Assembly (NCBI GenBank): GCA_902793435.1
Contig: CADBDF010000001.1
Coordinates: 2,418 to 66,417, forward strand
DNA length: 64,000 bases
DNA from: an uncultured Pseudomonadota bacterium
Lineage (GTDB): Bacteria; Pseudomonadota; Alphaproteobacteria; Rs-D84
Direction: 5' to 3'
Positions within the stretch are counted from its first letter, which is position 1; every line of letters begins with the position of its first letter. The notes under the pieces were generated by a model. It worked only from the letters and a program-made list of their open reading frames with translations. It did no database searches and was not told the origin of the DNA. Positions 3,482 through 39,404 of this stretch are shown piece by piece. The position numbers and the translations under genes were made by a program.

Positions 3482-4798
3482 TTATTGTAATTTCAACAAA
3501 CGATATTTTGCACGCACATCCGCAGCAATTTTATTCAACGCATTTTGATAATCAGCAACCGTCGCATTTGCATTGGCAGCAATAGATTTAAATGTTCGAC
3601 CGGCATTTGTTGTCGTATCAAATTCGGCACGCGGTAAATAACCAATCATTCTGTTCAAATCACCCAAAAACAAATCGTTAAAATTTGCAGATGAACTGCT
3701 GGCGTCCCAATAATAATTTGGATTTTGTGGGTCACTGATTTTTGATAAAACAGTTAATTTCGGGGTAATCGAACCCGCATAACCAACCGTCACATGCATT
3801 GCAGTAATACTGCCATAGCGCATTTTTACAGAACCATTTACAGTTAAAATTACAGGTTTGCCGTTTGCGTTATCTATGGTTAATGCCGGCAAAGTCAAAT
3901 TCGTCACCAGCAAATCGTTCGTTGTAAAAGATGAAAATTTACCCGTATCGGTCAAAGACAAACGACCAGATATTTCTAAATTTCGCGAATCCGATGTCAA
4001 AGAACCTGATACAGTCGCACTCTTGGTTGTAAATAAACTGTCAATCGTTGTGCGATTATCAAAAATCATATTGCGTGATGTTATTTTTCCAATGGTTAAA
4101 AATTCATCAAAAGAACCATCAATAAAACTCATATCTTTGACACCAATAATATCATGACCGCCCAAGTTTAATGACGAACGCATTGTCGCATCGTCTGGGT
4201 CATTTGATGGAACGCGCCACAGGTATAACGCATTATCACGATTTACCGTTGTTGTTCCAACCAACCCAGATGCCGCCGTCACACCCAAATCTGCAACAGA
4301 TGCACGCCAAGAATCATTTGCACCGTATGCTTTATTGCCATCAATAAAGCCAACCGCACCCCCAGACATATTTACAATTTGATGGGTTCGAAAAGGTGTA
4401 ATTTTATCCGATTCATAAACAACGATTCCTTGCAAAGTGGCCTGGCCATTAAAATCACGCGATTTTAAAACACGCAATTGATATTTAACATTTTTATCTG
4501 CGGCAATTTCTGTATCCAACCCATATTTTTCCAAATCAGCCAATTCAACACGTGTAATATTACGACCATAAGGCTTTAACATAGTTTCACGATTATCAAT
4601 AATATAACGTTCCAATGCGTTTTGTATTTCTGTCATCTGTTTTGTGACGACAATATTTTCACGACGTTCAATCGCCGAACGTTGATATTTAAACACAAAC
4701 GGAATTATCAACATAGCCAGCGCAACCGACAATAACAATTCCACCAGCATATTGCCGCTTTGATTCGTATTAAAAAATTTTATATTGTTTCGTTTCAT
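3482..4798 (-). CDS. Giant prepilin-like (pseudopilin-like) protein, 438 aa
   Basis: Class III signal: ...QSG|NMLVELLLSVALAMLII, with Gly at -1, Glu at +5 and a hydrophobic helix. Long S/T/N/G-rich C-terminal region. Shares a 4 bp overlap with the upstream gene. Confidence 0.55.
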   Translation of the reverse strand: MKRNNIKFFNTNQSGNMLVELLLSVALAMLIIPFVFKYQRSAIERRENIVVTKQMTEIQNALERYIIDNRETMLKPYGRNITRVELADLEKYGLDTEIAADKNVKYQLRVLKSRDFNGQATLQGIVVYESDKITPFRTHQIVNMSGGAVGFIDGNKAYGANDSWRASVADLGVTAASGLVGTTTVNRDNALYLWRVPSNDPDDATMRSSLNLGGHDIIGVKDMSFIDGSFDEFLTIGKITSRNMIFDNRTTIDSLFTTKSATVSGSLTSDSRNLEISGRLSLTDTGKFSSFTTNDLLVTNLTLPALTIDNANGKPVILTVNGSVKMRYGSITAMHVTVGYAGSITPKLTVLSKISDPQNPNYYWDASSSSANFNDLFLGDLNRMIGYLPRAEFDTTTNAGRTFKSIAANANATVADYQNALNKIAADVRAKYRLLKLQ

Positions 4799-6069
4799 TG
4801 TTCAGGCACACTTTCTTTGGTTTGCCAATCAGATGCCATAATCGCACTGAATTCATCTTTGTTTGGTGTTTGTGATATTGTTGTTCGTCCCAATTTAAAG
4901 GTCGAAAAACTGGGCATTTGATTTGACGGGAAAGACCAATTACCAATCTTTAATGGTGCGGACCCAGACATTAACAATTCACCAGACACCGTTAATCCAA
5001 AATCACCATAAAACACCATGTCATTTGCACTGATATATGGTGTATGAACAGAATTCGATGATATCGCAGTAAAAGCATTGATTGTTCGATTACTGGACGA
5101 TTTTAATTTAAACAAGTTTCCAATACGCACAGAATTTTTAATTGTTGCCCTGTCGGTAATAACCGCGCCAGTATTACTAAAATTATTTCCGTTCAGGTTA
5201 TTTGCAGTTATTGTGCGAAAACCACTGATATCGCCCAACGCACGTATCGTATCAATAACCGCATCGTTGCCTTGGATATTTGCACCAGACGAAAAATACG
5301 CAGAATCCGCGATAACATCATCAGCACGAATAAATGTTGTTTCTATATTTTTAACAGACACCGTTTCGGCATTTAATGTTCCAACATTTAACAAATCTTT
5401 GCCACCCATATTTAAATTGCGCAACATCGCATTTAAATTAAATTCTGCGGCATCTTTGGCAATTTCTTCTTCTGTTTTTTTGATTGTTATTTTTTTAGGC
5501 TTTGTTTCAACAATCGAATCCGATGCCGCACGATGCAAAAAATTCGTTCTGTCCATTGTCGCGAAATTATGCGATATACGATATATTAAATTACCAGGTT
5601 TAAAATCAGGACCCGATACCGCCCAACCTGTGCCATAGGCAACACCATCATCATCAACAATCGCGGCGGTGGCCCCAATTTGACGCGCAATTTGATTTAC
5701 CCGAACACGCGAATCGGTTATGTCAAATCCAAGATAAATATCTGTTATTGTTGTGCCACGAAATTGACGCTTGTCGATAAAACCACTGGATATAATTGGC
5801 GATATTTCTTGTAAATCTGTGGCGGTCATTTGTATTTCTGCAACATCAGGCCAATCTTCTTGGTGGGTACGAACAAAATTTAATGTTGCGTCTTGCAAAT
5901 CAACAATCTGTTGTGCCACAGAAATATTTTCCAAATCATCGTATGTGTTTGTCATTTGACGATACATAAACGGTGCCGCAACCGCAGCAATTGATATCGC
6001 CAATATCACCTCTAACAACGAGGCACCACGCGAATTATCGTTAAAGATTTTTGTTTTATATACAGTCAC
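4795..6069 (-). CDS. Giant prepilin-like protein, 424 aa
   Basis: Class III signal ...SRG|ASLLEVILAISIAAVAAPF with Glu at +5. The region after the helix is paralogous to its neighbours (ENI.V..Q...LQ pattern). Confidence 0.55.
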   Translation of the reverse strand: MTVYKTKIFNDNSRGASLLEVILAISIAAVAAPFMYRQMTNTYDDLENISVAQQIVDLQDATLNFVRTHQEDWPDVAEIQMTATDLQEISPIISSGFIDKRQFRGTTITDIYLGFDITDSRVRVNQIARQIGATAAIVDDDGVAYGTGWAVSGPDFKPGNLIYRISHNFATMDRTNFLHRAASDSIVETKPKKITIKKTEEEIAKDAAEFNLNAMLRNLNMGGKDLLNVGTLNAETVSVKNIETTFIRADDVIADSAYFSSGANIQGNDAVIDTIRALGDISGFRTITANNLNGNNFSNTGAVITDRATIKNSVRIGNLFKLKSSSNRTINAFTAISSNSVHTPYISANDMVFYGDFGLTVSGELLMSGSAPLKIGNWSFPSNQMPSFSTFKLGRTTISQTPNKDEFSAIMASDWQTKESVPEQ

Positions 6070-7417
6070 TGCGCCCCGCCATTAAACATTGTTTTGCATT
6101 TATTCTTTGTTCCAAACGTTCCCAGAACAAATATTCACACAGTATATGTTGTGCCAAAGAATTTGAATTATATACTTCGCCTAGACTTGCGACGATTGAA
6201 TTACATGTCACAGTTTCTGCATCATCTTTTTTTGGATTTTTCAAAATCGCAAAACCACCGTTATCAACATAAGACACACGAACATCGGGTAATACGGTTG
6301 TGCTGGCTGGACGAATATCTACAATAACCGCACCACTGTCGCCGGCATTTAACGCCTTGGACGTTTGGTCACGCAAAGTGACATGCGATGCAATCAGGGA
6401 ACCGGTTGAAATACCACTGGTTGAATTATACGATAAATGTCCAGAATCACCCGACACATAAACTTCTTGACCACTGCTGACATTTAAATAAGAACCGACA
6501 TCCAATGTTTCAGCACTCAACACGATATGTTCTGTTTCCAAATTACCGCGCACGTCCCATGTGACAGGCCCAGTAAATCCGGTACGCCCCGCCGTTAAAT
6601 CAAATGAATACACCGATGCAGAATCTGATTCAAAATTTCCCGTCGAACCGTATTGAGAAATTGTTTTTCCAAACACATTTTTTGCCCGCAAAGAACCACG
6701 TGTTAATGCCAATGCCGACCCACCAGATTTTGATTGGAATATACTTTTGTCTGCAACAAAATTTTTTATTTTATTTTTTGAATTCCTTTCGCCTTCATTC
6801 CCAGCAATATCCAATGTATCAAAATTTGCCACCCCAGATTCCAAATTATGCCCAATCACACTATTTGTATTTTCTATCGCAAAACCATTCATGTTCAAAT
6901 CTGTTAAAAATCCAGAATTATTTATGTCGGTTTCATTACGACGAACAACATCTTGGTATAATGTATTCAAAGGAATACCTACAATCAATCCGTCTTTACT
7001 TTTTTGTGCATAAAATCCAACACGACGAACCATTTCGGCAATTTGCATATTTGAAATTTTACCACCCGATACAACCAATGTTCCACCAACGCTTGCCTCG
7101 TCTTTATCAACAATCAAATAAATATCTTGCCCGAACGCAGTACGCGGAACATACCCCAAAGGCAAACCGTATGGTTCCAATGTATCTGCAAAATCCGGAC
7201 CACGAATAATTGTTCGACCATATGGCAAACTATCAACATTTTCACGAATAAAAATTCGTGCCGCAGTTTGTGCGGTATCAATTTGATGCGATGCAGAATA
7301 CATTTTTGCATCAACATCATTTACAATTAAACGATTTGTTAAAACCGGCATAAAAAGAAACAGCAAAGATATTGCCAGCAACGCCTGTAATAAAAAATTT
7401 CCCCTCTGGTTATGCAA
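6056..7417 (-). CDS. Giant prepilin-like protein lacking Glu+5 (GspK/PilX-like minor pseudopilin feature), 453 aa
   Basis: N-terminus ...QRG|NFLLQALLAISLLFLF has Gln instead of Glu at +5. It is the first gene of the operon; an AT-rich promoter region lies upstream. Confidence 0.55.
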   Translation of the reverse strand: MHNQRGNFLLQALLAISLLFLFMPVLTNRLIVNDVDAKMYSASHQIDTAQTAARIFIRENVDSLPYGRTIIRGPDFADTLEPYGLPLGYVPRTAFGQDIYLIVDKDEASVGGTLVVSGGKISNMQIAEMVRRVGFYAQKSKDGLIVGIPLNTLYQDVVRRNETDINNSGFLTDLNMNGFAIENTNSVIGHNLESGVANFDTLDIAGNEGERNSKNKIKNFVADKSIFQSKSGGSALALTRGSLRAKNVFGKTISQYGSTGNFESDSASVYSFDLTAGRTGFTGPVTWDVRGNLETEHIVLSAETLDVGSYLNVSSGQEVYVSGDSGHLSYNSTSGISTGSLIASHVTLRDQTSKALNAGDSGAVIVDIRPASTTVLPDVRVSYVDNGGFAILKNPKKDDAETVTCNSIVASLGEVYNSNSLAQHILCEYLFWERLEQRINAKQCLMAGRSDCI

Positions 7418-9555: not shown

Positions 9556-10014
9556 ATGACAAATGAATCTGGACGTTCTTTGATTGAAATGTTGGCAGTG
9601 TTGGCGATTGGTGCGGTTATGACCGCGGCGGCATACGGAACATACAATATGTTGCGAACAAACCAAACACGCAATTTGGCATTAAATGAAATGGAACAAA
9701 TTGCACGCAACACAAAGATATTATTGGAAACACGTGGTGATTATAACGGTGTGTCGGTTGATTATTTGATTAAGGCAGGCGCAATTACAAACCCAGATGC
9801 CCCAATCGGTGATGAAAACTGGTCAATAACATCATCAGTTGATGGAAAAACGTTTTCTATCAATTTAACTAATTTAACGCACAGCGATTGTTCTTATTTT
9901 GCAACAAAGAAAATCAGTTGGGCAAAATCTGTATCTGTGAACGGTTTAGAAAAAGCCGGTAGCGAAACATGTATATCGGCACCACGAAATTATATATCTA
10001 TCAATGTTGAATAA
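9556..10014 (+). CDS. Type IVa pilin-like protein (152 aa)
   Basis: Prepilin signal MTNESG|RSLIEMLAVLAIGAVM with Glu at +5, and a C-terminal Cys pair (SDCSYF...SETCIS) typical of the pilin D-region. Confidence 0.65.
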   Translation: MTNESGRSLIEMLAVLAIGAVMTAAAYGTYNMLRTNQTRNLALNEMEQIARNTKILLETRGDYNGVSVDYLIKAGAITNPDAPIGDENWSITSSVDGKTFSINLTNLTHSDCSYFATKKISWAKSVSVNGLEKAGSETCISAPRNYISINVE

Positions 10015-11435: not shown

Positions 11436-11451
11436 TAAGAAACCAACAAAT

Positions 11452-11482
11452 AAAAAATACCGGCGTTTGCCGGTGTTTTTTT
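11452..11482 (+). terminator. Rho-independent terminator, member of the ACCGGCRTTTGCCGGT hairpin family
   Basis: taccggcgtttgccggtg followed by a T-run, immediately after the skp-like stop. Confidence 0.6.
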
Positions 11483-11580
11483 ATTCCGGCCAATTCCACC
11501 CCATAGCCAAACCAGACAAAAGGCGCAATTGTGTCCGCCACCCGAAGGGTGGTCATTGCTCGCTCGGGATGACAAAAATG
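11468..11580. repeat. GC-rich intergenic repeat element (AATTCCACCCC terminus; CCACCC-GAA-GGGTGG hairpin; ...GCTCGGGATGACAAAA module)
   Basis: Shares the AATTCCACCCCATAG terminus with the element at 13141. Shares the GCGCTCRGGATGACAAAA module with the region at about 1395..1495. Confidence 0.45.
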
Positions 11581-11633
11581 TATTGCATTTTTGTTAATGA
11601 TATTTATTTGATTTTATTGTGTTTTTATTGATT

Positions 11634-11838
11634 AAACCGGTCTAAAAAAAACCTAGGTTTAAAAGCAACAACTTTTTTCAAAAATTTTAAAATTCACTTT
11701 TTTGTAAAAACAATGCGTTATTCAAAATCGCAATTCGCCAGATGTGGTGTCGAAAAAAACCTAGGTTTTTTGTATATTTGTTATATAGCGAAAAAGCGCG
11801 GATTTCCGCCAGTTTATAAAGTCGAGAGAGTTGCAAAA
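11634..11838 (+). promoter_or_regulatory. Conserved leader/promoter of paralog A with two AAACCTAGGTTT palindromes (11649..11660, 11757..11768)
   Basis: Near-identical, in inverted orientation, to 24483..24735 upstream of paralog B. It is AT-rich and contains perfect 12-bp palindromes about 108 bp apart. Confidence 0.55.
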
Positions 11839-13152
11839 ATGTCTGCAAAATGTGCATTTTTTAGTGTTTTTCAAAAAATAATGGTATTTTGCTGTGCCAT
11901 ATTTTTTGGATTTGCCGACGCATTTTCCGCAAATTTGCCAAGTGGGTATACGGAATTGGAATATATCGAATCCAGTGGAACACAATATATTGATACGGGA
12001 ATAAACGCCACTGGTAACCTTGATATTCAAGCCACTGTGAAAATATTATCCATGGATTCTTCTATTTCTGGTTTGTTTGGTGCCAGGAATATAAGTAACA
12101 ATTCAACTCTTGATGCGGTTTGGTTAGGGGTTTCAACATCAAGAACTTTGTGGCTATACAATAACAATACTACTAATAACCATTTGCCTGTTTGGGACAC
12201 CAATAAATGGTATGATGTGCATACGATTAATGGTGATTTATATTTAGATGCTTCGAAAATTGCTACATACGAAACCGCGACATTTTCTGGACCGTTAATA
12301 TATTTATTCTCGAGCAATAATGGTGGTTCGATACAGAAGGGGGGTGGGAATTTTCAGTTTTCTAGTTTTAAGATAAAACAAAACAATACTCTTGTTCAAG
12401 ATTTAATTCCCGCGAAACGCGATAGTGACGGTGAAATCGGTATGTACGATACGGTCAGCAACACATTCTTTACCAACGCCGGTACTGGTACATTTACCGC
12501 CGGTCCGGAGGTGTTGAATCCATGCCGGAATTTGTTTGATTCATCAGCATTTAATACAGATGTTGGACAAACTAATACTTGGTTACATTTTCAAGTACCA
12601 AACGGCACATACACAATGAGTACTAATTTTCCTCCTCAAACAGGACAAGTATATACAAATGTTTGGGTTTTGGCAGGAAATGTAACATCTGGAATTGATA
12701 GTGCAACAAATGGTGTTTCTCTTGGCCACCCAAAAACAATAACTGTCACAGACGGCTGGTATTCAGTGGTGTACAGAAGTGGCATACCTAATATTCCGAG
12801 AAATCCAAAAGATTATAACTGGCAACTTGAACAAGGTTCAACAGCAACCGAGTATGTGCCGTATAATGCCAGTTGCCACAATACAAATGGAATCAAAATC
12901 GCAACCACTGCATATAACAGCGCGCGTTTTAGTCCTGTTATGACTGATTTAAATACTACTATTGCTACAATTCGCGATATCGTGACGAATACGATAAATC
13001 AAACCGCCGCAATAGCCAGTTTGCAAGCGGACAAGCAGACCCGCCCGGAAGATGCTTGTCCCGCCGGCAAAAAATGCCTACTGGTCGAAACCGAAGAAAA
13101 CGGCGTTATTGTCCCGCATTGGTTCCCGATAATAGAGGCACCCGAAGAATAA
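11839..13152 (+). CDS. Secreted phage-receptor-binding-protein-like protein, paralog A (alternative start 11881)
   Basis: Begins with a conserved leader ORF MSAKCAFFSVFQKI, then a copy-specific signal peptide MVFCCAIFFGFADAFSA. Central motifs YTELEYIESSGTQYIDTG and NWQLEQGSTATEYVPY. The C-terminal 90 aa (IATTAYN...CPAGKKCLLVETEENGVIVPHWFPIIEAPEE) is about 85% identical to paralog B. Confidence 0.6.
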   Translation: MSAKCAFFSVFQKIMVFCCAIFFGFADAFSANLPSGYTELEYIESSGTQYIDTGINATGNLDIQATVKILSMDSSISGLFGARNISNNSTLDAVWLGVSTSRTLWLYNNNTTNNHLPVWDTNKWYDVHTINGDLYLDASKIATYETATFSGPLIYLFSSNNGGSIQKGGGNFQFSSFKIKQNNTLVQDLIPAKRDSDGEIGMYDTVSNTFFTNAGTGTFTAGPEVLNPCRNLFDSSAFNTDVGQTNTWLHFQVPNGTYTMSTNFPPQTGQVYTNVWVLAGNVTSGIDSATNGVSLGHPKTITVTDGWYSVVYRSGIPNIPRNPKDYNWQLEQGSTATEYVPYNASCHNTNGIKIATTAYNSARFSPVMTDLNTTIATIRDIVTNTINQTAAIASLQADKQTRPEDACPAGKKCLLVETEENGVIVPHWFPIIEAPEE

Positions 13153-13205
13153 TTCCACCCCATAGGGGCGGGGGACCGCCCGTCACCAAAGGTGGCGGGT
13201 GGTGG
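13141..13205. repeat. GC-rich repeat element abutting the paralog A stop codon (AATTCCACCCC...GGTGGCGGGGG)
   Basis: Same termini as the element at 22919..23030 at the homologous position after paralog B. The internal modules differ. Confidence 0.5.
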
Positions 13206-13207
13206 CG

Positions 13208-13240
13208 GGGGTAAAAAAAACGCCCGGTTGGGCGTTTTTT
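13208..13240. terminator. Bidirectional rho-independent terminator (aaaaaaaacgcccggttgggcgtttttt)
   Basis: GC hairpin flanked by an A-run and a T-run, between convergent paralog A and rpsO. Confidence 0.6.
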
Positions 13241-13241
13241 G

Positions 13242-13514
13242 TTATTTACGCAAGCCTAATTTTTTAATCAAGGCTTCATAGTCTGCTTCGTTACGGCGTT
13301 TGATATATGCCAATAACTTTTTACGACGATTAACCATCAATAACAAACCGCGTTTGCTGTGTTCGTCTTTGTGGTTGTTTTTCATGTGTTCTGTTAAATT
13401 ACGGATACGTTCGGTCAAAACTGCAACCTGGGTTGCCGCGCTGCCGCCGTTATCGTTTTCAGAAACTTTGAATTCTTTAATTAATTCAGTTTTTTTTGTT
13501 TTTGTAATGGACAT
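13242..13514 (-). CDS. rpsO: 30S ribosomal protein S15
   Basis: 90 aa MSITKTKK...LGLRK, typical S15. Confidence 0.9.
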   Translation of the reverse strand: MSITKTKKTELIKEFKVSENDNGGSAATQVAVLTERIRNLTEHMKNNHKDEHSKRGLLLMVNRRKKLLAYIKRRNEADYEALIKKLGLRK

Positions 13515-13526
13515 TACATTTCCTTT

Positions 13527-14408
13527 TTATATTGTGCGTTTTGGACGCAATTGTTTATCTTGTACAAAACCGATTCCAACCAAGGTATCATCGTTATACA
13601 CGCGTACCAAACCGTCCGGTTCTGTGGTTTTGATAAATCCACCATGCCTATAAAGTTCGGTGTCTTTATCGTCCAGATTTAAAACCGGAATGCCCCCCAG
13701 TCCTAAATCTATTGGCATCAAAAATTCATTGATGTCGCCATACATTTTAACCATATTTTCCAAAAAATCAAGTGTGACAGCATTTTTTAAATCAAAACCA
13801 TTTGTGGAAATTCGGCGAATTGCGGTGACTGTCGCAATGGTTTTACAATAATTTGCAATGTCGCGCGCCAAAGACCGAACATAAGTCCCGCGCCCACATT
13901 TTACATAAAAATTCCAATTTTCACCGTCAAAGCCATCATACCTTAAATCAAAAATATGAATTTTGCGTGGTGCAATATCAATGTTTTCGCCATTTCGCGC
14001 AATTTTATACGCACGCACCCCATCAACATGTACCGCACTGTAAATTGGTGGAACCTGCATAACATCACCAATAAAATGTGTCACAGAATCGTTTATTTGC
14101 GTGTCTGTGGGAATTTTGTTGTTTTGTTGTGTGATTGTGCCGGTTATGTCTAAACTGTCTGTGCTGATGCCAAATTTGCATGAAAACAGATATTCTTTTG
14201 TGCCATCGTTTGCAGATTCTACAAATGGAATCATTTTTGTTGCGTCGCCAATCGCGATTGGTAAAACCCCAGTCGCCATTGGGTCCAATGTTCCAATATG
14301 CCCAGATTTTTTATATCCAAACAAACGCGCCACGCGTGATGATGCACTGCGACTGAATAAACCCGATGATTTGTCTAAAATAATCCAACCAGACATTTTA
14401 TTCCCCAA
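13527..14408 (-). CDS. truB: tRNA pseudouridine(55) synthase
   Basis: TruB motif GTLDPMATGVLPIAIG; 293 aa; directly upstream of rpsO. Confidence 0.85.
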   Translation of the reverse strand: MGNKMSGWIILDKSSGLFSRSASSRVARLFGYKKSGHIGTLDPMATGVLPIAIGDATKMIPFVESANDGTKEYLFSCKFGISTDSLDITGTITQQNNKIPTDTQINDSVTHFIGDVMQVPPIYSAVHVDGVRAYKIARNGENIDIAPRKIHIFDLRYDGFDGENWNFYVKCGRGTYVRSLARDIANYCKTIATVTAIRRISTNGFDLKNAVTLDFLENMVKMYGDINEFLMPIDLGLGGIPVLNLDDKDTELYRHGGFIKTTEPDGLVRVYNDDTLVGIGFVQDKQLRPKRTI

Positions 14409-16923
14409 ACAAATTTAATTGTGGCGAATTTGATTCGTTTTTATGTTTTGGCGCACTTTTGGCTTTTTCAATTTTGATTTCATTTTTAACAGTTTTGTTT
14501 TCGCCACTTTCCAATCCCGCCAACACAGATTCTGCGCGTGCAACAACCGATTCTGGCATGCCCGCCATTTTTGCAACATGAATACCGTATGAACGATTCG
14601 CAACACCATTGACGATTTTATGCATAAATATAATTTCATTATTGTATTCACGCACATCAATTGTCAGGCATGAAACCATATTTAAAACACCGCCATTATC
14701 ACCCGACAAAGCGGTTAATTCATGATAATGTGTTGCAAATAAAGTGCGTGGTGCCATATTGTTTAAAAATTCTAATACTGATTGAGCAATTGCCATACCG
14801 TCGTATGTTGCGGTTCCGCGACCGATTTCATCAAATATAATAAAAGACCGATTTGTTGCGCGACGCAAAATATTTGCGGTCTCACTCATTTCTACCATAA
14901 ATGTCGATTGACCAGCCGCCAAATTATCGGACGCGCCAACGCGACTGAATAACTGGTCACAAATTCCAATTGTTGCAGATTTTGCTGGTACAAAAGACCC
15001 CAGGTGCGCCAACACAACAATCAACGCATTTTGACGCAGATATGTTGATTTTCCCGCCATATTTGGACCGGTAATAAGGGCAATTTTTTTATTTGATAAA
15101 TCGCAATCATTTTTTACAAAGTTATCACCATGTTTGCGTAATACGGCCTCTATTACTGGGTGGCGACCGCCAACGATGCAAAAATCTGGACCTGTTGTCA
15201 TTTCTGGACACGCCCAATCGTATTCAATCGCGACAAATGTCAAAGCCGACCAAACATCTAAATCCGCCAACAAATCAGCTGTTGCCAATAAATCGTCGGC
15301 AACATCACTGATTTTCGAAATAAATTTGTTAATGATTTCTTCTTCTATGGCAGCGGCCTTGTCGGACGCATTGCGAATATCGTTATCCAATTCAATCAGT
15401 TGTGATGTTGTAAAACGAACATTACCCGCCAGGGTTTGACGATGTATAAATCCAGATTCCGGTTTCATCATATCATCGGCGCGTGTTGCCGGAACCTCTA
15501 TAAAATATCCCAATATATTATTGAATTTTATTTTTAATGTATGAATCCCGGTTTGTTCAATATATTGTGACTGCAAACCTGCAACGGTATTGCGTGCGCC
15601 ATGTGATAATTCGCGCATTTTATCCAACGATAAATCAAACCCATCACGAATAATATTCCCGTCACGAAAAAATGTTGGCAATTCATCATTTAATGCACGA
15701 TTTAATTGCAAACCTAATTCGTCATGAGTTTTTATTGCGTATAACTTTTTTGCGAAATCGTCATCTAATGCATGGGACATCATTTTTAAATTTGGCAAAT
15801 TTATAATAAAATCGCGAACATGCGACATATCGCGTGGCGTGCCGCGACCCGCGGACAACCGCGCCAAAGAACGTCCAACATCCGGCATAGATGACAATTC
15901 ATGCGCAACATTTATTAAAACATTTCGATTAGAAATAAAATGATTTATATGTTTTTGACGCAGTTTTATTTCATCAATACTGCCCGACAAAGCACGCATA
16001 TACGCACGTAATTTTCGCGCCCCCGCGGCAGTTTTTGTTTTATCCAACACATCGACCAAACATGCACCACCGGCATTTATTGGTGCATCTATTTCCAAAC
16101 TTTTCCATGTTGCAGAATCGATTAATAATTGTGCATCGTTTTTGAACTGTCGTGGCGCACGAAAAGTTGTTGTCACACCACGACCCGCATTAAATAAATA
16201 CCCAGCCAACAAACAAATTGCGCTGTCTGCGGGGTCTGTTTTTATATCGCCGACAACACCACCAAAAACAGTTTCAACAATTTGTGAAATGTCGGAACGA
16301 ATATACAATTTTTCAAATACAGGTGTTGTTTTGAACACTGTGCGCATGTGAAATATAGTGTCGTTTTCCGCATGCGAAGATGGAAATATAACCTCGGCGG
16401 GATTTAATCGCACCAAATCATCAATTAAATCATTTGTTGCGCCAACAAAAAATTCCCCGGTTGAAATATCACAACCTGCGACATCAAATCCACCATTTTG
16501 CATTGGCACAATCGCAACCAAAAAATTTGCAGACTTTGGATTTAATAAATTTTCATCGGTCAGTGTCCCAGGTGTTAAAACACGAACAATTTTGCGTTCG
16601 ATATATTTATGTCCGCGTTCCTTTGCTTGTGCTGGGGTTTCCATTTGTTCAACCAATGCAACTTTGAATCCAGATTTTACCAATCGACCAAAATAATTAT
16701 CTGCCGCATGCCATGGAATACCGCACATTGGGATATTTGCGCCTGTTTCATCGGTTCCGCGTTTGGTTAAAACCAGACTCAAAGCTTCGCTGATGGTTTT
16801 GGCATCATCAAAGAAAGCCTCGTAAAAATCGCCCAAACGGAACAGCAACAAAGCCTCTGGGTTTTCGGCCTTCATATCCATATATTGTTGCATCACCGGT
16901 GAAAGTTTTTCTTTTGCCGCCAC
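14398..16923 (-). CDS. mutS: DNA mismatch repair protein MutS
   Basis: 841 aa with TPVMQQY, Walker A GPNMAGKSTYLRQ and the C-terminal ATPase domain. Overlaps truB by 11 bp. Confidence 0.9.
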   Translation of the reverse strand: MAAKEKLSPVMQQYMDMKAENPEALLLFRLGDFYEAFFDDAKTISEALSLVLTKRGTDETGANIPMCGIPWHAADNYFGRLVKSGFKVALVEQMETPAQAKERGHKYIERKIVRVLTPGTLTDENLLNPKSANFLVAIVPMQNGGFDVAGCDISTGEFFVGATNDLIDDLVRLNPAEVIFPSSHAENDTIFHMRTVFKTTPVFEKLYIRSDISQIVETVFGGVVGDIKTDPADSAICLLAGYLFNAGRGVTTTFRAPRQFKNDAQLLIDSATWKSLEIDAPINAGGACLVDVLDKTKTAAGARKLRAYMRALSGSIDEIKLRQKHINHFISNRNVLINVAHELSSMPDVGRSLARLSAGRGTPRDMSHVRDFIINLPNLKMMSHALDDDFAKKLYAIKTHDELGLQLNRALNDELPTFFRDGNIIRDGFDLSLDKMRELSHGARNTVAGLQSQYIEQTGIHTLKIKFNNILGYFIEVPATRADDMMKPESGFIHRQTLAGNVRFTTSQLIELDNDIRNASDKAAAIEEEIINKFISKISDVADDLLATADLLADLDVWSALTFVAIEYDWACPEMTTGPDFCIVGGRHPVIEAVLRKHGDNFVKNDCDLSNKKIALITGPNMAGKSTYLRQNALIVVLAHLGSFVPAKSATIGICDQLFSRVGASDNLAAGQSTFMVEMSETANILRRATNRSFIIFDEIGRGTATYDGMAIAQSVLEFLNNMAPRTLFATHYHELTALSGDNGGVLNMVSCLTIDVREYNNEIIFMHKIVNGVANRSYGIHVAKMAGMPESVVARAESVLAGLESGENKTVKNEIKIEKAKSAPKHKNESNSPQLNLFGE

Positions 16924-16937
16924 GATTTTACACCTAT

Positions 16938-17135
16938 TTATTCAGTAATTTTCAAAGTTTCGATTTTCAATTCGGCTTCTTTTAACAATTGTTCGCAGTA
17001 AGCCTTTAATTTAATACCTTGTTCGTATGCCGCCACAGAATCAGCCAATGGCAATTCACCAGATTCCATTTTTTTAACCAATTCGGTTAATTGTTTATAT
17101 GCTTCTTCAAAGGTTAATTTTTTTTCTTCTGCCAT
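16938..17135 (-). CDS. xseB: Exodeoxyribonuclease VII small subunit
   Basis: 65 aa helical MAEEKKLTFEEAYKQLTELVKKMESGELPL. Confidence 0.7.
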   Translation of the reverse strand: MAEEKKLTFEEAYKQLTELVKKMESGELPLADSVAAYEQGIKLKAYCEQLLKEAELKIETLKITE

Positions 17136-17147
17136 TTTCTTTCCTTT

Positions 17148-18581
17148 TTATAAATTGATATCCCATGTTGTACCATTTGGCGTATCTTTTAAAACGATAC
17201 CTTTGTCCAACAACTTGGTGCGCACGTTGTCCGCCGTTGCCCAATCTTTATTTTGTTTTGCCACTGCACGTTCATTGATATATTTTTCAATATCGCCAAC
17301 AGTTATATTGGAATTTTTTAATACAGTCGATTTTATATTGTTGATATATTCATCAGGATTTTTTTGTAATATATTCAACACACCGAACAATTCAACGATT
17401 TTATTTCCAATGCGTTTTAAATCATATTCGGTTGATTTTTTTGCCAATTCAGTATTGATAAAATTAAACCAACCAAACGCAGATGCAATAACTTCCAAAG
17501 TATTAAAATTATCGTTCATTGCGCGTTCAAATTCGTTTTTAATTTCATCGATTTTTGCGTTTGTTTTGTCGGCATCTGCGCCTGAAAAATCGCGTTCATT
17601 TAATGCCATCAGCCCAGAATACATTTTATAAATGTGTCGGCGTGATTCTGGAAACAAAGAATCTGTGATATCAATATCTGCCGAATATGTATTTCGCAAC
17701 AAAGCAAATCGTATTGTATCTGCATCGTATTTATCTAAAACATCTTTTAACAAAATACCGTTGCCAAGTGATTTGCTCATTTTTTGACCATTGATTTTGA
17801 CCAATCCGCAATGAATCCAATATTTTGCAAATTGTTTTCCGGTAAGTGATTCTGTTTGTGCAATTTCGTTTTCGTGGTGTGGAAAAACCAAATCACGACC
17901 ACCACCATGAATATCAATCTGTTCGCCCAAATATTTTAAATTCATCGCACTGCATTCAATGTGCCAGCCCGGTCGTCCCATACCCCATGGCGATTTCCAA
18001 GCAATTTCACCAGGTTTTGCAGATTTCCATAATGCAAAATCTAAATCATTTTGTTTGCCTGGTTCTGTTTCTTTGCGAACGCCAGTATCATTTTTATCAA
18101 CCTGGATATGAGATAACTTGCCGTATTCATTAAAACTGGATAACTTAAAATAAACATCGCCGAACTGCGAAACATAGGCATGCCCAGAATCAATCAATTT
18201 TTGCACAAAGTTTATAATATCATCAATACAATGTGTTGCACGTGCCATAATAGTTGGTTTTTCATTACCCAATTTATCCATTTCAATATCGGTCTGTGCT
18301 ATATATTTTTCAGCAAACTCCACAGGGTCTTCATTTGCGCGTGCTGCATTGGCAATAATTTTATCATCGACATCGGTATAGTTTCTAACATATTTAACAT
18401 CATATCCCAAATAACGCAGGTATCGTGTAATAACATCAAATACGACTGATTGATATGCATGCCCAATATGTGCATCGCCCGACACAGTAATACCACATGC
18501 GTACATATTAACGATTCCAGGGTTTAGTGGGACAAAATCTTGCTTTGTTCTGGACAAAACATTATAAACTTTCAATGCCAT
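17148..18581 (-). CDS. cysS: Cysteine--tRNA ligase
   Basis: HIGH motif (HIGHAYQ), KMSKS and Zn-binding cysteines; 477 aa. Confidence 0.9.
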   Translation of the reverse strand: MALKVYNVLSRTKQDFVPLNPGIVNMYACGITVSGDAHIGHAYQSVVFDVITRYLRYLGYDVKYVRNYTDVDDKIIANAARANEDPVEFAEKYIAQTDIEMDKLGNEKPTIMARATHCIDDIINFVQKLIDSGHAYVSQFGDVYFKLSSFNEYGKLSHIQVDKNDTGVRKETEPGKQNDLDFALWKSAKPGEIAWKSPWGMGRPGWHIECSAMNLKYLGEQIDIHGGGRDLVFPHHENEIAQTESLTGKQFAKYWIHCGLVKINGQKMSKSLGNGILLKDVLDKYDADTIRFALLRNTYSADIDITDSLFPESRRHIYKMYSGLMALNERDFSGADADKTNAKIDEIKNEFERAMNDNFNTLEVIASAFGWFNFINTELAKKSTEYDLKRIGNKIVELFGVLNILQKNPDEYINNIKSTVLKNSNITVGDIEKYINERAVAKQNKDWATADNVRTKLLDKGIVLKDTPNGTTWDINL

Positions 18582-18641
18582 GACAAATTCCTTTATATGC
18601 AGGATTCAAAATACACAATAAAAACCGAACTTTCAACAAGT

Positions 18642-19058
18642 TTAATTAAATTTTTTATCAAAAAATTTGCAGATAATATCTTTGAAATCTTGGTGCATGT
18701 CTAAATGTTCGGTGTCTTGACGATTTACCCATTTATAATCGGTGTGTTCAGGCGATAAAACAACATCACCTGAAACATATTTTGCGACGAACAAATACCC
18801 AAAAAATTGAGTGTCTTTGTTGTATGCAATACCCGTCCAACCAAATACGGGGTGGGGCATTGCATCTATGTTTAGTTTAACTTCTTCGTAAATTTCGCGT
18901 GTAATAGCCGTTTGAAAATTTTCACCAAATTCAATTTTTCCACCGGGTAAATCCCACATGCCCGGGAACACAGGTGTTTCTTTGTTTCGTTTTAACACCA
19001 AAATATTTCCCTGTGCATTATATATAATTATTTTTACGACACCCCGAAAATTTGCCAT
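18642..19058 (-). CDS. NUDIX hydrolase
   Basis: Nudix box GGKIEFGENFQTAITREIYEEVKL. Confidence 0.7.
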   Translation of the reverse strand: MANFRGVVKIIIYNAQGNILVLKRNKETPVFPGMWDLPGGKIEFGENFQTAITREIYEEVKLNIDAMPHPVFGWTGIAYNKDTQFFGYLFVAKYVSGDVVLSPEHTDYKWVNRQDTEHLDMHQDFKDIICKFFDKKFN

Positions 19059-19080
19059 TTTATAAATCCATTATTTACGA

Positions 19081-19110
19081 AAAAACACCGACACTTGCCG
19101 GTGTTTTTAT
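19081..19110. terminator. Bidirectional terminator hairpin (aaaaacaccgacacttgccggtgtttttat), variant of the CCGG-family hairpin
   Basis: Inverted repeat with flanking A and T tracts downstream of mreB. Confidence 0.5.
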
Positions 19111-19121
19111 ACGATTTTGTA

Positions 19122-20174
<1,053 letters not shown>

Positions 20175-20290
20175 TCAATCCTTATCTTTTTGTCGTGCAA
20201 ACTATAAAACGATATATGTGAAAAATCAAGCGTCCTAAACAAAAAATGTTTTTATTTGATTTCTTGGATTTTTGGGGCATAATACCCGTC

Positions 20291-20725
20291 ATGAGAAATA
20301 CAATAAAAAATCATAAAGATTTTATAACCCCGCGCGATTTTCCATATGCGGTAATGGATTGGTTTTCTGTGCATACCAAATTGGCAAAATATCCAGATGA
20401 TGCGCGTTATGGACTGACTGTGGCAAAACGTAATTTTCGTTATGCGGTTCAACGCAATCGTGCGAAGCGTCTGTTGCGTGATTGGATTGCGTTTGCAAAT
20501 CGTTATATGTGTCCAGATTTAGATTATATTTTCTTTGCGCGTCCTGGTATATTAAACGACGATGTCACGCGTGATGCCGGCCGTCAAGCGATGGTGCGCG
20601 CATTAAAAGATATTCGTCACAGAAACGATTTTCGTAAAAATGGATACCAAAAAAAACCAAAAACTAATCCCCAAAACAAATCTCAAAATGCGTGTGATAA
20701 AACAAAAAAATCCAACGAAAAGTAA
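20291..20725 (+). CDS. rnpA: RNase P protein component (start chosen at [11 protein letters not shown]; the ORF extends upstream to 20246)
   Basis: RnpA-like basic core ...[27 protein letters not shown], with a Lys-rich C-terminal tail overlapping yidD. No rpmH was found upstream. Confidence 0.7.
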
Positions 20726-20762
20726 TTCGTTTTTAACCAACGTTGGTGTGCGTTTGGTAAAA

Positions 20763-20948
20763 ATGTATCAATCGTGTATATCGCCATTTATTGGCGGTCG
20801 ATGTGCCTGCCGTTTTGTTCCCTCATGCAGTGAATACACCAAAATTGCAATTGAAAGATACGGATTGTTTCGTGGAATTTGGTTGGGTATAAACCGAATA
20901 TCGCGTTGTCGTCCGGGTGGTGGGTTTGGATATGACCCGGTACCTTGA
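20763..20948 (+). CDS. yidD: Membrane protein insertion efficiency factor YidD
   Basis: [25 protein letters not shown]... has the characteristic Cys pattern, and the gene sits in the canonical position after rnpA. The ORF-track start at 20640 is likely too far upstream. Confidence 0.75.
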
Positions 20949-21029
20949 CTTTTTGCGTATGTGTGGTAAAATTTAATTAAAACACTTGAAAAATATATTG
21001 GTGTAATAGAGTTTATAAAAGGATAAAAA

Positions 21030-21470
21030 ATGTCATTTCGTGCGACCGTTGAATCTATGTCAAAAATCATGGACGATATGGGAATAACAGAATTGGATTT
21101 GGAACGTCAATTTTTATTTGGCGTATATCGCAAACATATTCATTTGTCCAAAGGAACCGCTGTTGCGATGCCAACTTTTTCTGCGGATAAAACAATTAAA
21201 AATTCAACGACTTCTGCGGCATCTGCGCCTGAATATGCAAATGCGCTAAAATCCCCAATGGTTGGTGTTGTATATTTGGCAACCGAACCGGGTGCAAAAC
21301 CGTTTGTTCGTGTTGGCGATACGGTGCATGCTGGCGATACAGTCGCCTTGGTCGAGGCTATGAAAACATTTAATCCAATCAAGGCAACAACCGATGGTGT
21401 CGTCAAAGAAATTTTGGTGACTGATGCCCAGGCGGTTGAATTTGACCAGCCTTTGATTGTTATAGAGTAA
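21030..21470 (+). CDS. accB: Biotin carboxyl carrier protein of acetyl-CoA carboxylase
   Basis: C-terminal biotinyl domain EAMKTFNPI (AMK biotinylation motif). Confidence 0.85.
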   Translation: MSFRATVESMSKIMDDMGITELDLERQFLFGVYRKHIHLSKGTAVAMPTFSADKTIKNSTTSAASAPEYANALKSPMVGVVYLATEPGAKPFVRVGDTVHAGDTVALVEAMKTFNPIKATTDGVVKEILVTDAQAVEFDQPLIVIE

Positions 21471-21476
21471 TTTAAT

Positions 21477-22871
21477 ATGTCACAAATAAAAAAAGTTTTA
21501 ATCGCAAATCGTGGTGAAATTGCATTGCGTATAATTCGTGCGTGTCGTGATATGGGTATTCGCACAGTTGCGGTTTATTCGACCGCTGATAAAAATGCGA
21601 TGCACACACAATTGGCTGATGAAAGTGTATGTATTGGACCTGCGCCATCACGTGATTCTTACCTTAATGAATCTGCAATTTTAACTGCGGCGTTGCTGAC
21701 AAATGCGGACGCAATCCACCCAGGATATGGTTTTCTATCGGAAAATGCCGGATTTGCGCGCAAGGTTGAATCCCATGGTATGATTTGGATTGGACCATCA
21801 CCTGATATGATTGTTCGTATGGGGGACAAGGTTAATGCAAAAAAAACGGCTATTGCGTGTGGTTTGCCGGTTGTGCCGGGGTCAAGTGGTGCGGTAAATT
21901 CTTTGGCTGATGCCAAAGCATGCGCGGAAAAAATTGGTTATCCTGTAATGTTAAAGGCTGCATCTGGTGGGGGTGGTCGCGGTATTCGTGCGGTTTTTAA
22001 ACCCGAAGATTTAGCCGAGGCTTTTGCCACAACTCGTGCCGAGGCAAAATCCAGTTTTGGTGACGAAACATTATACATGGAAAAATTATTGTTGCACCCA
22101 CGTCATATTGAATTTCAAATATTGGGTGACAAACATGGAAATGTTGTTGTATTGGGCGAACGCGATTGTTCGTTGCAACGCAAAAATCAAAAGTTAATCG
22201 AAGAATGTCCTGCGGCGATTTTATCACAAAAACAACGCGATGATATGATTGAAATTTGCAAAACTGCCGCTAAAAAAATGGGGTATTTCAGTACAGGAAC
22301 TTTTGAGTTTATGTATGAAGACGGCAAATTTTATTTCTTGGAAACAAATACCAGACTCCAAGTTGAACACCCGGTCACAGAAATGGTTTATGGCATAGAT
22401 TTGGTGCGCGAACAGATTCGTATTGCGGCGGGCGAAAGGTTGGGCTATTCCCAGGCGAATATCGTGCCACATGGCCACGCGATTGAATTTCGTATCAATG
22501 CCGAAGACCCTGAAACATTTATTCCAAACCCAGGGACGATATCATTGTATGCGCCATCTGGTGGATTAGGCGTGCGTGTGGATTCCGCCGTCTATACTGG
22601 ATATACGATTCCACCGACATACGATTCCATGATTGCGAAATTGATTGTGCATAACACGTCACGTGCGACATGTATAATGCGTGCAACGCGTGCGTTGGAA
22701 GAATTTGTAATCGAAGGTGTTAAAACCACAATTCCATTACATAAAAAATTGTTAAACAATCGTGATTTCAGGCAACTGAATTTTGATAATCATTGGTTGG
22801 AAAATTATTTGTCATCTGCGCCAAATCCAGATGATGAAATAACCCCAACCGAAGAAAATTCACAAGAATAA
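21477..22871 (+). CDS. accC: Biotin carboxylase
   Basis: ATP-grasp fold with KVLIANRGEIALRIIRAC and MLKASGGGGGRG. Confidence 0.9.
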   Translation: MSQIKKVLIANRGEIALRIIRACRDMGIRTVAVYSTADKNAMHTQLADESVCIGPAPSRDSYLNESAILTAALLTNADAIHPGYGFLSENAGFARKVESHGMIWIGPSPDMIVRMGDKVNAKKTAIACGLPVVPGSSGAVNSLADAKACAEKIGYPVMLKAASGGGGRGIRAVFKPEDLAEAFATTRAEAKSSFGDETLYMEKLLLHPRHIEFQILGDKHGNVVVLGERDCSLQRKNQKLIEECPAAILSQKQRDDMIEICKTAAKKMGYFSTGTFEFMYEDGKFYFLETNTRLQVEHPVTEMVYGIDLVREQIRIAAGERLGYSQANIVPHGHAIEFRINAEDPETFIPNPGTISLYAPSGGLGVRVDSAVYTGYTIPPTYDSMIAKLIVHNTSRATCIMRATRALEEFVIEGVKTTIPLHKKLLNNRDFRQLNFDNHWLENYLSSAPNPDDEITPTEENSQE

Positions 22872-22887
22872 ATAAAAAATACACAAT

Positions 22888-22919
22888 AAAAACACCGGCA
22901 TTTGCCGGTGTTTTTTTTT
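22888..22919. terminator. Terminator hairpin aaaaacaccggcatttgccggtgttttttttt (canonical ACCGGCATTTGCCGGT family member)
   Basis: Perfect 7-bp stem with a TTT loop and flanking A and T runs. Serves convergent accC and paralog B. Confidence 0.65.
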
Positions 22920-23030
22920 ACCCCCGCCACCCGCTTTCGCTTCGCTTCAGCGAGGTTCCCCGCCCCAAGCGTCACCCACAAAATTTTACAAATTTTGCGG
23001 GGCCCGATTGGGGTGGAATTATTATTCGGG
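22919..23030. repeat. GC-rich mosaic repeat element, full-length type (CCCCCGCCACCCGCTTTCGCTTCGCTTCAGCGAGG...AT-rich module...GGGGTGGAATT)
   Basis: About 90% identical to 33638..33752 and to the shorter 63428..63495. Abuts the stop codon of paralog B. Confidence 0.6.
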
Positions 23031-24362: not shown

Positions 24363-24482
24363 ACTCCCCCGTTTTCTTTTCCTTTGCCTATAACCCCCTC
24401 CGTCACTCTCGTTGCGTTGCAACTTGGTGACCCGCCTCCCCGGTCGCGCTTGCGCGCTGGGGCGGAATTCTGGACGCACAAA
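24363..24482. repeat. GC-rich repeat element inserted between the conserved leader and the paralog B start codon (…GGGGCGGAATTCTGG terminus)
   Basis: Shares CCCCCTCC and GGGGCGGAATT modules with the other elements. Absent from the homologous position in copy A. Truncates the conserved MSAK leader ORF (24359..24601). Confidence 0.5.
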
Positions 24483-24735
24483 AACCACCAGATTTTTTGT
24501 AAAACACCAAAAAATGCACGTTTTGCAGACATTTTCGCAACTCTCTCGATTTTATAAACTGGCGGAAATCCGCACCTTTTTGCCATGTTTTGATTATACA
24601 AAAAACCTAGGTTTTTTTCGACACCACATCTGGCAAATTGCGATTTTGAATAACGTATTGTTTTTACAAAAAAAGTGAATTTTAAAATTTTTGAAAAAAG
24701 TTGTTGCTTTTAAACCTAGGTTTTTTTTAGACCGG
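24483..24735 (-). promoter_or_regulatory. Conserved leader/promoter of paralog B (inverted copy of 11634..11880), with AAACCTAGGTTT palindromes at 24603..24614 and 24712..24723
   Basis: Reverse complement matches copy A almost base-for-base, including the leader ORF start MSAK(R)AFFGVLQKI. Confidence 0.55.
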
Positions 24736-24770
24736 TTTAATAAATAAAAACAGGCTATATTTAATTGGTT

Positions 24771-33637: not shown

Positions 33638-33752
33638 ACACCCCCTCCACCCGCTTTCGCTTCGCTGCAGCGAGGTCCCCCTCCCCAATGCTTACCCAAA
33701 AAATTTTTACAAATTTTTCGAGGCCCAGCGGGGCGGAATTTATTTGCAAATG
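33638..33752. repeat. GC-rich mosaic repeat element, full-length type
   Basis: CCCCCTCCACCCGCTTTCGCTTCGCTGCAGCGAGGTCCCCCTCCCCA...TTTTTACAAATTTTTCGAGGCCCAGCGGGGCGGAATT; homolog of 22919..23030. Confidence 0.6.
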
Positions 33753-39283: not shown

Positions 39284-39303
39284 TAGTTAGTTGAAAGATT
39301 CAA

Positions 39304-39404
39304 AAAAATACCGGCAATTGTCGGTATTTTTTTAAATTCAGTGTTCAACACACAGAGTTCGGTTATGGCATAAAAAATACCGGCATTTGCCGGTATTTTT
39401 TGCT
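39304..39404. terminator. Tandem pair of terminator hairpins (taccggcaattgtcggta; taccggcatttgccggta), ACCGGCATTTGCCGGT family
   Basis: Two hairpins 68 bp apart, each with A/T flanks, between convergent pal and parB. Confidence 0.55.

Follow-up and report, generated by a model that had tools for sequence, protein, structure and literature searches.

The window analysed here is a stretch of 64,000 nucleotides from an uncultured Pseudomonadota bacterium of the Rs-D84 lineage (assembly GCA_902793435.1, contig CADBDF010000001.1, positions 2,418-66,417 of the forward strand). It contains two genes, which we call paralogs A and B, that encode proteins ending in a closely similar module and that lie behind a common upstream block with the appearance of an invertible switch. 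Paralog A is encoded at 11839-13152(+), with its ATG at 11839 and its stop codon at 13150-13152 (437 aa plus stop), and paralog B at 23022-24362(-), from MKKFLSS (446 aa plus stop). A first-pass annotation, made from the sequence alone, had described both as secreted proteins with motifs resembling those of phage receptor-binding proteins under the coordinates 11839-13152; these span A only, and B sits outside them. The motifs it quoted are present, YTELEYIESSGTQYIDTG and NWQLEQGSTATEYVPY in A, and AQFEKGSTATTYHPY in B at the end of the N-domain.

The mapping of homologue matches divides A into a signal peptide (residues 1-31), a domain D1 (residues 33-225; 11935-12513), a domain D2 (residues 226-345; 12514-12873) that ends in QLEQGSTATEYVPY, and the shared module (residues 351-437; 12889-13149). 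B is made up of a signal peptide (residues 1-23), the N-domain (24-182; 24293-23817), a middle region (183-360; 23816-23283) and the shared module (361-446; 23282-23025), all on the reverse strand. BLASTP aligns A351-436 with B361-446, with 76 of 86 residues identical (88%, E 2e-50), and at the DNA level the 3' block common to the two genes runs over 274 nt at 86% identity. Outside the module only a short QLExGSTAT stretch aligns (E 0.002), and the central regions are unrelated. The earlier description of unrelated centres joined to about 90 near-identical C-terminal residues is therefore accurate.

The N-termini of A (MSAKCAFFSVFQKIMVFCCAIFFGFADAFSA, followed by NLP) and of B (MKKFLSSLLLALTVLITASPVYA, followed by DGE) each open with a basic n-region, which is succeeded by a hydrophobic core and by small residues ahead of the probable cleavage site, and both are modelled as helix. 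They look like Sec signal peptides, as had been proposed for both proteins. Mature A begins directly with D1 after the signal peptide, and an N-terminal virion-attachment region of the phage type is absent. The public gene models are longer than those used here. That for A (P0001, 479 aa) starts at 11713, which is 42 codons upstream and inside the invertible segment described below, and that for B (P0121) is likewise long at 485 aa; over-extensions of 18-43 codons are found in many homologues. The upstream ATG of the 479-aa model is ATA in the B copy, and the ATG at 11839 and its GAGAGAG ribosome-binding site are kept in all loci. The 479-aa model probably extends too far, into a non-coding switch region. 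Such upstream over-extension in automatic annotation has hidden both the switch and the signal peptides.

Both genes stand in housekeeping surroundings. The neighbours of A are dnaX, skp, rpsO, truB and mutS, and those of B are accB, accC and a TPR gene; mreB also belongs to the neighbourhood of the two genes. There are no phage structural genes within the window. With this context and with signal peptides on both proteins, A and B lie outside any prophage, and the first-pass annotation was right on this point.

The shared module is predicted in both structural models as a helix of about 45 residues followed by a single beta-hairpin, and not as a barrel. In A the helix spans residues 357-400 and is followed by the Cys pair of CPAGKKC and by the hairpin at 413-430. 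The predicted local distance difference test score (pLDDT) of this region is 40-75, and the models are of monomers. Hydrophobic residues recur along the helix with a 3.5-residue periodicity (core positions F V L T I V T Q I L), so that the predicted helix is compatible with a coiled coil; polar T and Q core residues are common in trimeric coiled coils. Invariant features of the module are the Cys pair of CPAGKKC and the motifs KQTRP, CLLVE and PHW. Comparison of the module between A and B gives a synonymous divergence (dS) of 0.62 and a ratio of nonsynonymous to synonymous divergence (dN/dS) of 0.10, which means that the paralogs are old and that the protein sequence of the module is strongly constrained. 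The same values argue against recent gene conversion as its source.

The module is almost private to its lineage. An exhaustive search of 1.84 billion representative proteins found it in 311 only, once per protein. Its most conserved peptides, compared with 2.9 million viral contigs, matched a single one (10.6 kb, 74% identical), and that contig is probably bacterial. In 98 of the 175 family copies the module is internal, running via ...IIENxYGLP directly into another D1, and hence it cannot be a C-terminal sorting or anchor signal. It has no hit in Pfam or NCBIfam and is so often internal that it does not fall in the trimeric-autotransporter, type IX secretion C-terminal domain, PEP-CTERM or LPXTG classes. 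A profile of the module found no relative in the PDB (best E 0.18, to unrelated proteins). Identity as a foldon, an intramolecular chaperone or an enzyme was considered and is unsupported; the search for a chaperone fold that had been suggested earlier gave no match to any such family, nor to any other solved or curated one. The C-terminus of T4 fibritin, a coiled coil followed by the foldon, is alike in predicted shape only, with a heptad helix and then a hairpin of about 20 residues ending a fibre-like protein. There is no detectable sequence similarity to it, and the module here differs in having an invariant Cys pair and in being often internal. The first-pass annotation had spoken of a common anchoring or assembly module. 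The anchoring part of that proposal fails on the internal position of the module, and the assembly part stands as a suggestion from the predicted coiled-coil stalk and hairpin. From the models, the module is most likely a lineage-specific oligomerising stalk.

Other parts of both proteins have phage relatives. In the AlphaFold model of A (pLDDT 72.5) there are two beta-sandwiches, a long helix and a terminal hairpin. D1 is predicted to be a ConA/LamG/pentraxin-type beta-sandwich of 13-14 strands, which places it by fold in the ConA/LamG superfamily. The model of B is weak (pLDDT 59.5), and of its fold assignments only that of the N-domain was used, which is predicted to be similar to a carbohydrate-binding module (CBM). 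Within the family D1 starts with the consensus YTxLEYIESxGTQYIDTG, and the CBM-like domains end in QLExGSTATxYxPY. Neither A nor B gave anything significant against Pfam, NCBIfam or PHROGs, or in sequence searches of the PDB. With Foldseek, A matches gut siphovirus proteins among viral models (E 5.5e-17, 30% identity), and many further phage proteins named ConA-like lectin or LamG-like. Alignment of D1 alone finds 94 relatives on IMG/VR contigs, at 30-40% identity across the whole domain. On one of the viral contigs (L174) D1 lies within a 1071-aa protein that has a PHROG tail-protein N-terminus and is followed by tail-fibre-assembly-like genes and an endolysin, and on another (L176) the D1 gene comes after tape-measure, distal-tail and tail-associated genes. 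Residues 28-180 of B match annotated tail-fibre genes of Klebsiella, Bacillus, Streptococcus, Staphylococcus and Clostridium phages (E 2e-7), and residues 26-327 have 216 relatives on IMG/VR viral contigs, the best of them (39% identity, E 1e-46) in a tail module. The neighbours of the D1-type and B-type viral genes match PHROG tail, tail-fibre and tape-measure families. The viral matches end just short of the shared module. A tblastn search with A of 50,697 deposited phage genomes gave no match, and the phage link of A is seen only in IMG/VR and BFVD. The first-pass annotation had taken the motifs, one of them with less certainty, as typical of phage fibre and receptor-binding proteins, and this proves well founded, for both lie in domains homologous to phage tail-module proteins.

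In their binding domains A and B are thus homologous to phage tail-module proteins. They might then be imagined to be tail fibres or receptor-binding proteins of a particle made by a resident prophage, a gene-transfer agent or a tailocin. Alphaproteobacteria are known to carry gene-transfer agents with fibre genes outside the main cluster, which would favour this reading. Against it, there are no phage genes in the 64 kb. Phage particles assemble in the cytoplasm, whereas Sec-type signal peptides are found on A, on B and on the family consensus. At least 21 copies are scattered among the housekeeping genes of a genome of about 1 Mb, the N-terminal virion-attachment regions of the phage type are missing, and the module is essentially absent from the 2.9 million viral contigs. 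What would mark these proteins as parts of a virion, that is a phage gene module, a virion-attachment region and the lack of an export signal, is not found at A and B, and we consider their origin in a phage-like particle very improbable.

A second region is common to A and B at their 5' ends. This block extends over 261 nt at 92.7% identity, between 11620-11879(+) and 24752-24492(-), and is far better conserved than the synonymous sites of the coding module (dS 0.62). In A it comprises in order a left repeat, an invertible core, a right repeat, a -10-like TATATT, the 5' untranslated region (UTR), the ribosome-binding site, the ATG and the 14 codons that open the D1-type leader. The 5' UTR contains a GCGG-ATTT-CCGC hairpin, and the ribosome-binding site is the GAGAGAG noted above. 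The core in A is 108 bp (11655-11762), with CCTAGG centres at 11652-11657 and 11760-11765, and the repeat finder places the inverted-repeat arms TAAAAAAAACCTAGGTTT and AAACCTAGGTTTTTTGTA at 11622-11660 and 11757-11795. The block of B (24492-24752(-)) has a core of 109 bp with CCTAGG centres at 24606-24611 and 24715-24720, and its arms at 24597-24614 and 24712-24729(-) are 18 nt long, 94% complementary and 97 nt apart. The gene-proximal repeat is followed by a perfect TATAAT in B and by TATATT in A. The sequence AAAAAACCTAGGTTT occurs in two copies per block, 108 nt apart, and in the window it is found at these two loci only, compared with 0.01 expected. The repeat core, AAACCTAGGTTT, is a perfect palindrome. 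A search of the whole window with Rfam returned tRNAs only, with no known riboswitch or other RNA in the 5' block. Inverted repeats that flank a short segment just upstream of a gene are the hallmark of an inverton, and they are present at both A and B.

Comparison with other loci reveals the segment in both orientations. The blocks upstream of family genes in the rumen metagenome-assembled genome (MAG) RUG14746 and in metagenome contigs are 85-93% identical, and in three loci (L002, L016 and L050) the stretch from one CCTAGG centre to the other has precisely the opposite orientation. When the segment of A is flipped in silico, collinearity is restored, giving 85% over 257 nt to L002 and 84.5% over 258 nt to L016. 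The core is conserved at 90-97% in either orientation. L050 keeps the outer flanks of the loci in the commoner orientation, which we call state 1, and its junctions lie inside CCT/AGG. Both states are represented on a single metagenome contig, by the separate loci L050 and L074. Of the homologous loci, L002, L016 and L050 are in state 2 and about 15 are in state 1; both copies in the window are in state 1. Three contigs (L004, L051 and L079) end at a repeat, as assemblers do at heterogeneous inversions, although the evidence is weak. Diverged forms of the switch lie in front of a B-type gene in Candidatus Enterousia onthequi, of a D1-type gene in RUG13827, and of the gene for an unrelated secreted protein on a metagenome contig. 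In the last case (L053:1560-1690) the variant stands before a secreted protein (MNNKLILTSLTAMMLAMPALA...) that is by eye unrelated to the family, and the switch may control other surface or secreted proteins too.

Judged by its sequence, the 5' cassette has the anatomy of an inverton acting at many loci with one repeat sequence. Its orientation differs between homologous loci, and from this we infer active switching. Inversion of the 108-bp segment by site-specific recombination would exchange the -35/UP region before a fixed -10 and in this way turn each gene on or off. In state 2 the fixed -10 is preceded, at a distance of 18 nt, by TTGCWT and an AT-rich tract. Tentatively, this minority state would be ON, and both genes of the window would then be OFF.

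A and B are members of a large family. Database homologues number 2144 for A and 807 for B, none with a Pfam domain, and those that are named are all 'hypothetical protein' from MAGs of uncultured Alphaproteobacteria. In RUG14746 (about 1 Mb), to which the flanking genes of the window are 92-97% identical, there are 22 module loci with 21 intact genes, scattered around the genome. Their architectures include D1-CC, D1-CC-D1, D1-X-CC(-D1), D1-D2-CC-D1, BN-Bmid-CC and X-CC. The proteins are short, at 250-700 aa, and no catalytic domain is attached in any architecture observed. The other carriers of the shared module are uncultured Alphaproteobacteria that include Candidatus Enterousia onthequi, UBA3635, RUG13827 and RUG13375. 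Enterousia belongs to the order Rs-D84, in which genomes are smaller than 1 Mb and most biosynthetic pathways are missing, and for whose members an obligate symbiotic or parasitic life on other cells is predicted (PMC12306168). The first-pass annotation missed the shared 5' block with its segment, and also how large and combinatorial the family is and that its host lineage has reduced genomes.

Loci of RUG14746 without the CCTAGG switch (L009, L011, L012, L013, L014, L018, L020 and L022) have another conserved leader about 260 nt upstream. In this second type, structured GC-rich sequence is accompanied by a hairpin resembling a terminator (...gaacaccccgaccgc...gcggtatttttatttttt), and a palindrome (ttttgcgttgcaaaa) directly precedes the ribosome-binding site. 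It may be an attenuator or an operator, and so a second regulatory class of the family.

New members of the family would arise by domain shuffling around the conserved 5' leader and the stalk module. A leader remnant lies before B (24359-24532(-)), where the ATG of the block (24532-24530) opens a 57-codon open reading frame (ORF; MSAKRAFFGVLQKIWW...). Its sequence diverges after about 14 codons; the frame then runs through a AATTCCGCCCCA hairpin relic (24469-24458) and meets the start of B in an ATGA overlap. L005/L070 and L006/L023 likewise have a truncated leader, behind which stands a different family gene equipped with its own signal peptide. This layout implies that the switch cassette is kept while gene bodies are deleted or replaced.

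The 3' ends carry traces of the same turnover. The sequence AATTCCRCCCCA is the 5' arm of a GC-rich hairpin directly 3' of family-gene stops, and it is located at 11492, 13151, 23009-23020(-) and 24458-24469(-); there are near-matches at 33729 and 63482. As AATTCCACCCCA the element has four exact copies in the window, all in gene orientation, compared with 1.27 expected with one mismatch allowed. The copy at 23009-23020(-) is immediately 3' of the B stop codon, and the 3' UTR of A (13151-13240(+)) consists of the GC-rich hairpin (AATTCCACCCCATAGGGGCGGGGG...) and then an intrinsic-terminator-like hairpin at 13215-13240. The copy of the hairpin arm at 11492-11503(+), upstream of the switch of A, is probably a relic of a lost upstream family gene. 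The element is also found after the truncated leaders in L006 and L023, and these misplaced copies, like that upstream of the switch of A, seem to be left over from deleted family genes. A role for AATTCCRCCCCA as a recombination site bounding cassettes was considered and rejected in favour of the GC-rich 3'-UTR hairpin; its positions are not conserved between genomes.

A and B are convergent, so that their homologous 3' modules face each other. In RUG14746 and in the independent contig L070 the TPR gene upstream of B is joined via a family gene to the rpsO-truB-mutS genes downstream of A, and the order in L005/L070 is TPR, switch, family gene, rpsO/truB/mutS. Relative to RUG14746 and the independent contig, the segment of about 10 kb from rpsO to accC (13162-23009) is inverted in the window, with breakpoints within family genes (L005, L070); the reciprocal junction (skp ... 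accC) was not among the loci compared. The inverted 10 kb is the product expected of recombination between the A and B modules, which indicates that the family also shapes chromosome structure. From these gene orders the repeated modules appear to be substrates for chromosomal inversion.

Our preferred explanation, to which we give a probability of about 0.6, is that A and B are phase-variable, probably oligomeric lectin-fibre adhesins of an obligately partner-dependent bacterium of the Rs-D84/Enterousia type. The multigene family to which they would belong, one of modular proteins exported by Sec, would be confined to Alphaproteobacteria of the Rs-D84 or Candidatus Enterousia kind. Each protein would combine beta-sandwich binding domains of the phage-fibre and receptor-binding type with a family-specific module of about 85 aa, made of a heptad-repeat helix, a disulfide-type CxxxxxC loop and a beta-hairpin, and this module would oligomerise the chains into a short fibre or stalk. 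Transcription of both genes would start from the conserved 5' cassette under the control of its segment. The folds, the export signals, the copy number and the lifestyle together point to a function in phase-variable adhesion, of surface-displayed fibres, to glycans or other surface structures of partner cells or host.

A number of observations weigh against this explanation. Neither a route across the outer membrane, nor a surface anchor, nor a ligand was identified for the family proteins. The model of B is poor overall (pLDDT 59.5), and oligomerisation of the module rests on monomer models in which its pLDDT is 40-75. No locus was seen in both orientations within one population; the orthologous sets L005/L070/B, L007/L077/L091 and L001/A are all in state 1. 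The promoter logic is ambiguous, with TCGAAA-17-TATATT in state 1 and TTGCWT-18-TATAAT in state 2, both of them consensus matches only. Only about 7 of the 21 family genes of RUG14746 carry the CCTAGG switch. There is no invertase gene in the 64-kb window, and in the 494 kb of related loci that were searched the only recombinase is a XerC-like gene. This tyrosine recombinase (L009:4399-5406(-), in RUG14746) is convergent with a family gene about 150 nt away. It scores 300 bits against a XerC cutoff of 335, and is probably a housekeeping gene.

Several of these points would also suit an ordinary promoter or operator, in which the palindromes bind a dimeric regulator, possibly with looping, and L002, L016 and L050 are rare fixed inversions. 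The perfectly palindromic AAACCTAGGTTT resembles operators, there are weak -35-like hexamers in both orientations, and neither an invertase (in the window and the 494 kb) nor heterogeneity at the same locus was observed. A fixed operator does not readily explain precise inversions at three independent loci in three assemblies, with the junctions in the centres of the palindromes and with state-1 flanks retained in L050. It also leaves aside the two states on a single metagenome contig, the three contigs that break at repeats, and the conservation of the core at 90-97% whichever its orientation. Moreover a core of about 108 bp between inverted repeats of 15-18 nt, just upstream of surface-protein genes, is the known geometry of invertons. 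We therefore think the operator unlikely, though it is the strongest competitor of the invertible switch.

The binding domains could alternatively serve nutrition, with A and B as secreted glycan-binding proteins for nutrient capture or scavenging rather than partner adhesins, and with the switch still varying their expression. Carbohydrate binding is the usual role of ConA/LamG and CBM folds, glycans abound in the gut and rumen, and no anchor was identified. Against this, no architecture observed includes a catalytic domain, and the lineage is reported to be without standard sugar transporters and most of sugar metabolism (PMC12306168). Extreme diversity of paralogs combined with on/off switching is typical of molecules of surface recognition or immune evasion, and the nearest relatives of the domains are phage receptor-binding modules. 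Scavenging thus seems to us rather improbable, somewhat more so than the fixed operator, and we continue to favour phase-variable adhesins.

Some other features of the window deserve mention. Several ORFs at 3482-7417(-) and 9556-10014(+) have by eye N-termini of the prepilin or pseudopilin type (e.g. ...SLIEMLAVLAIGAVMTAAAY). Their sequences suggest a type II secretion or type IV pilus-like system, and such a putative system could be a route of export or display for the family proteins. A 757-aa ORF at 27348-29621(+), in a housekeeping context, has a Walker A motif and N-terminal membrane segments and looks like a candidate coupling protein of the VirD4/TraG type. At 52075-52599(-) there is a 174-aa unannotated ORF of secreted type, with a signal peptide (MKNLFTIFLCLICMPAFA...) and without a Pfam family. 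Near-identical terminator-like hairpins (aaaaaataccggcgtttgccggtgttttttt) follow unrelated genes at 11450-11482, 22888-22917, 39303-39334 and 39370-39401, and these look like a small family of repeated terminator elements. ARAGORN calls a tRNA-Asp of 91 nt with anticodon ATC at 18624-18714(+), which is below the gathering threshold of the Rfam tRNA model and is probably a false positive.

The closest functional analogue of the family is the mosaic adhesive trimer (MAT) family of Bdellovibrio bacteriovorus (Caulton et al. 2024, PMC10769870), in which 21 secreted mosaic trimers resembling phage fibres have an invariant domain in common and bind prey glycans with their variable tips. Both are bacterial multigene families with about 21 copies per genome and signal peptides, and both are phage-tail-fibre-like mosaics of one invariant module and swappable binding domains in a bacterium living off other cells. 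They differ in every structural detail. MAT fibres have a conserved beta-rich N-terminal domain of about 130 aa, long trimeric beta-prism or beta-helix stalks and often an S74 chaperone-protease. In the family described here the invariant part is a helix-hairpin of about 85 aa that is central or C-terminal, the variable D1 or CBM-like domain follows the signal peptide, and no S74 domain or beta-helix is seen. The proteins have no Pfam hit, Peptidase_S74 included, and PDB searches gave no sequence match to the solved MAT fragments. They do not belong to the MAT family, and by the tests run we regard the two as analogous and not homologous. The MAT paper reports no invertible switch (PMC10769870).

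The cassette itself may be compared with known invertons, such as fimS of E. coli with FimB/FimE and the capsule promoters of Bacteroides fragilis with Mpi, in which a segment flanked by inverted repeats likewise lies directly upstream of genes for surface structures. The B. fragilis pattern is alike in that the same repeat sequence is present at many loci of one genome. Both orientations of the segment are found, here among homologous loci. No dedicated recombinase was seen here in the window or in the 494 kb of related loci, the repeat core is palindromic with its CCTAGG centre, and the promoter appears to be split, the -35/UP region lying within the segment and a fixed -10 beyond it. The G segment of Mu, the C segment of P1 and the R64 shufflon (PilV) are alike in concept, DNA inversion varying a receptor-binding repertoire. 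They differ in that the proteins here are cellular and exported, without virion-attachment domains, and in that a promoter segment would flip and not coding segments. With the distal domains of phage fibres and receptor-binding proteins the relation is one of homology, the binding domains being 30-40% identical to tail-module proteins.

In a limited search of the literature on Enterousia, Rs-D84 and invertible promoters in Alphaproteobacteria, which is not proof of absence, we found no description of the family or of the switch. Bacteria of the Rs-D84/Enterousia group are uncultured and occur widely in animal guts; a life at the expense of other cells is predicted for them, and how they recognise their partners is unknown (PMC12306168). 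The family would take up about 3% of a genome of about 1 Mb, in about 21 genes of 0.75-2 kb each, and is without annotation in Pfam, NCBIfam or PHROG. It joins two themes that have been mostly separate, the cellular capture of phage binding domains and inverton-controlled surface variation. The sequence of the switch, the stalk module and the catalogue of domains provide handles that can be used to find partners and to read expression states from metagenomic reads, and to ask whether the partners open to a cellular symbiont are determined by binding modules derived from phage. A more speculative possibility, which we hold to be distinctly less likely than the adhesin function as such, is that an obligately cell-dependent alphaproteobacterium, living as an episymbiont or a parasite, recognises its partners by means of this family, in which captured phage receptor-binding domains have been given export signals, a private stalk and more than 20 variants, with a multi-locus inverton choosing which 'host-range' fibres are displayed. 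If this is true, it would be a cellular counterpart of phage tail-fibre switching, in which the repeated modules also drive chromosomal inversions.

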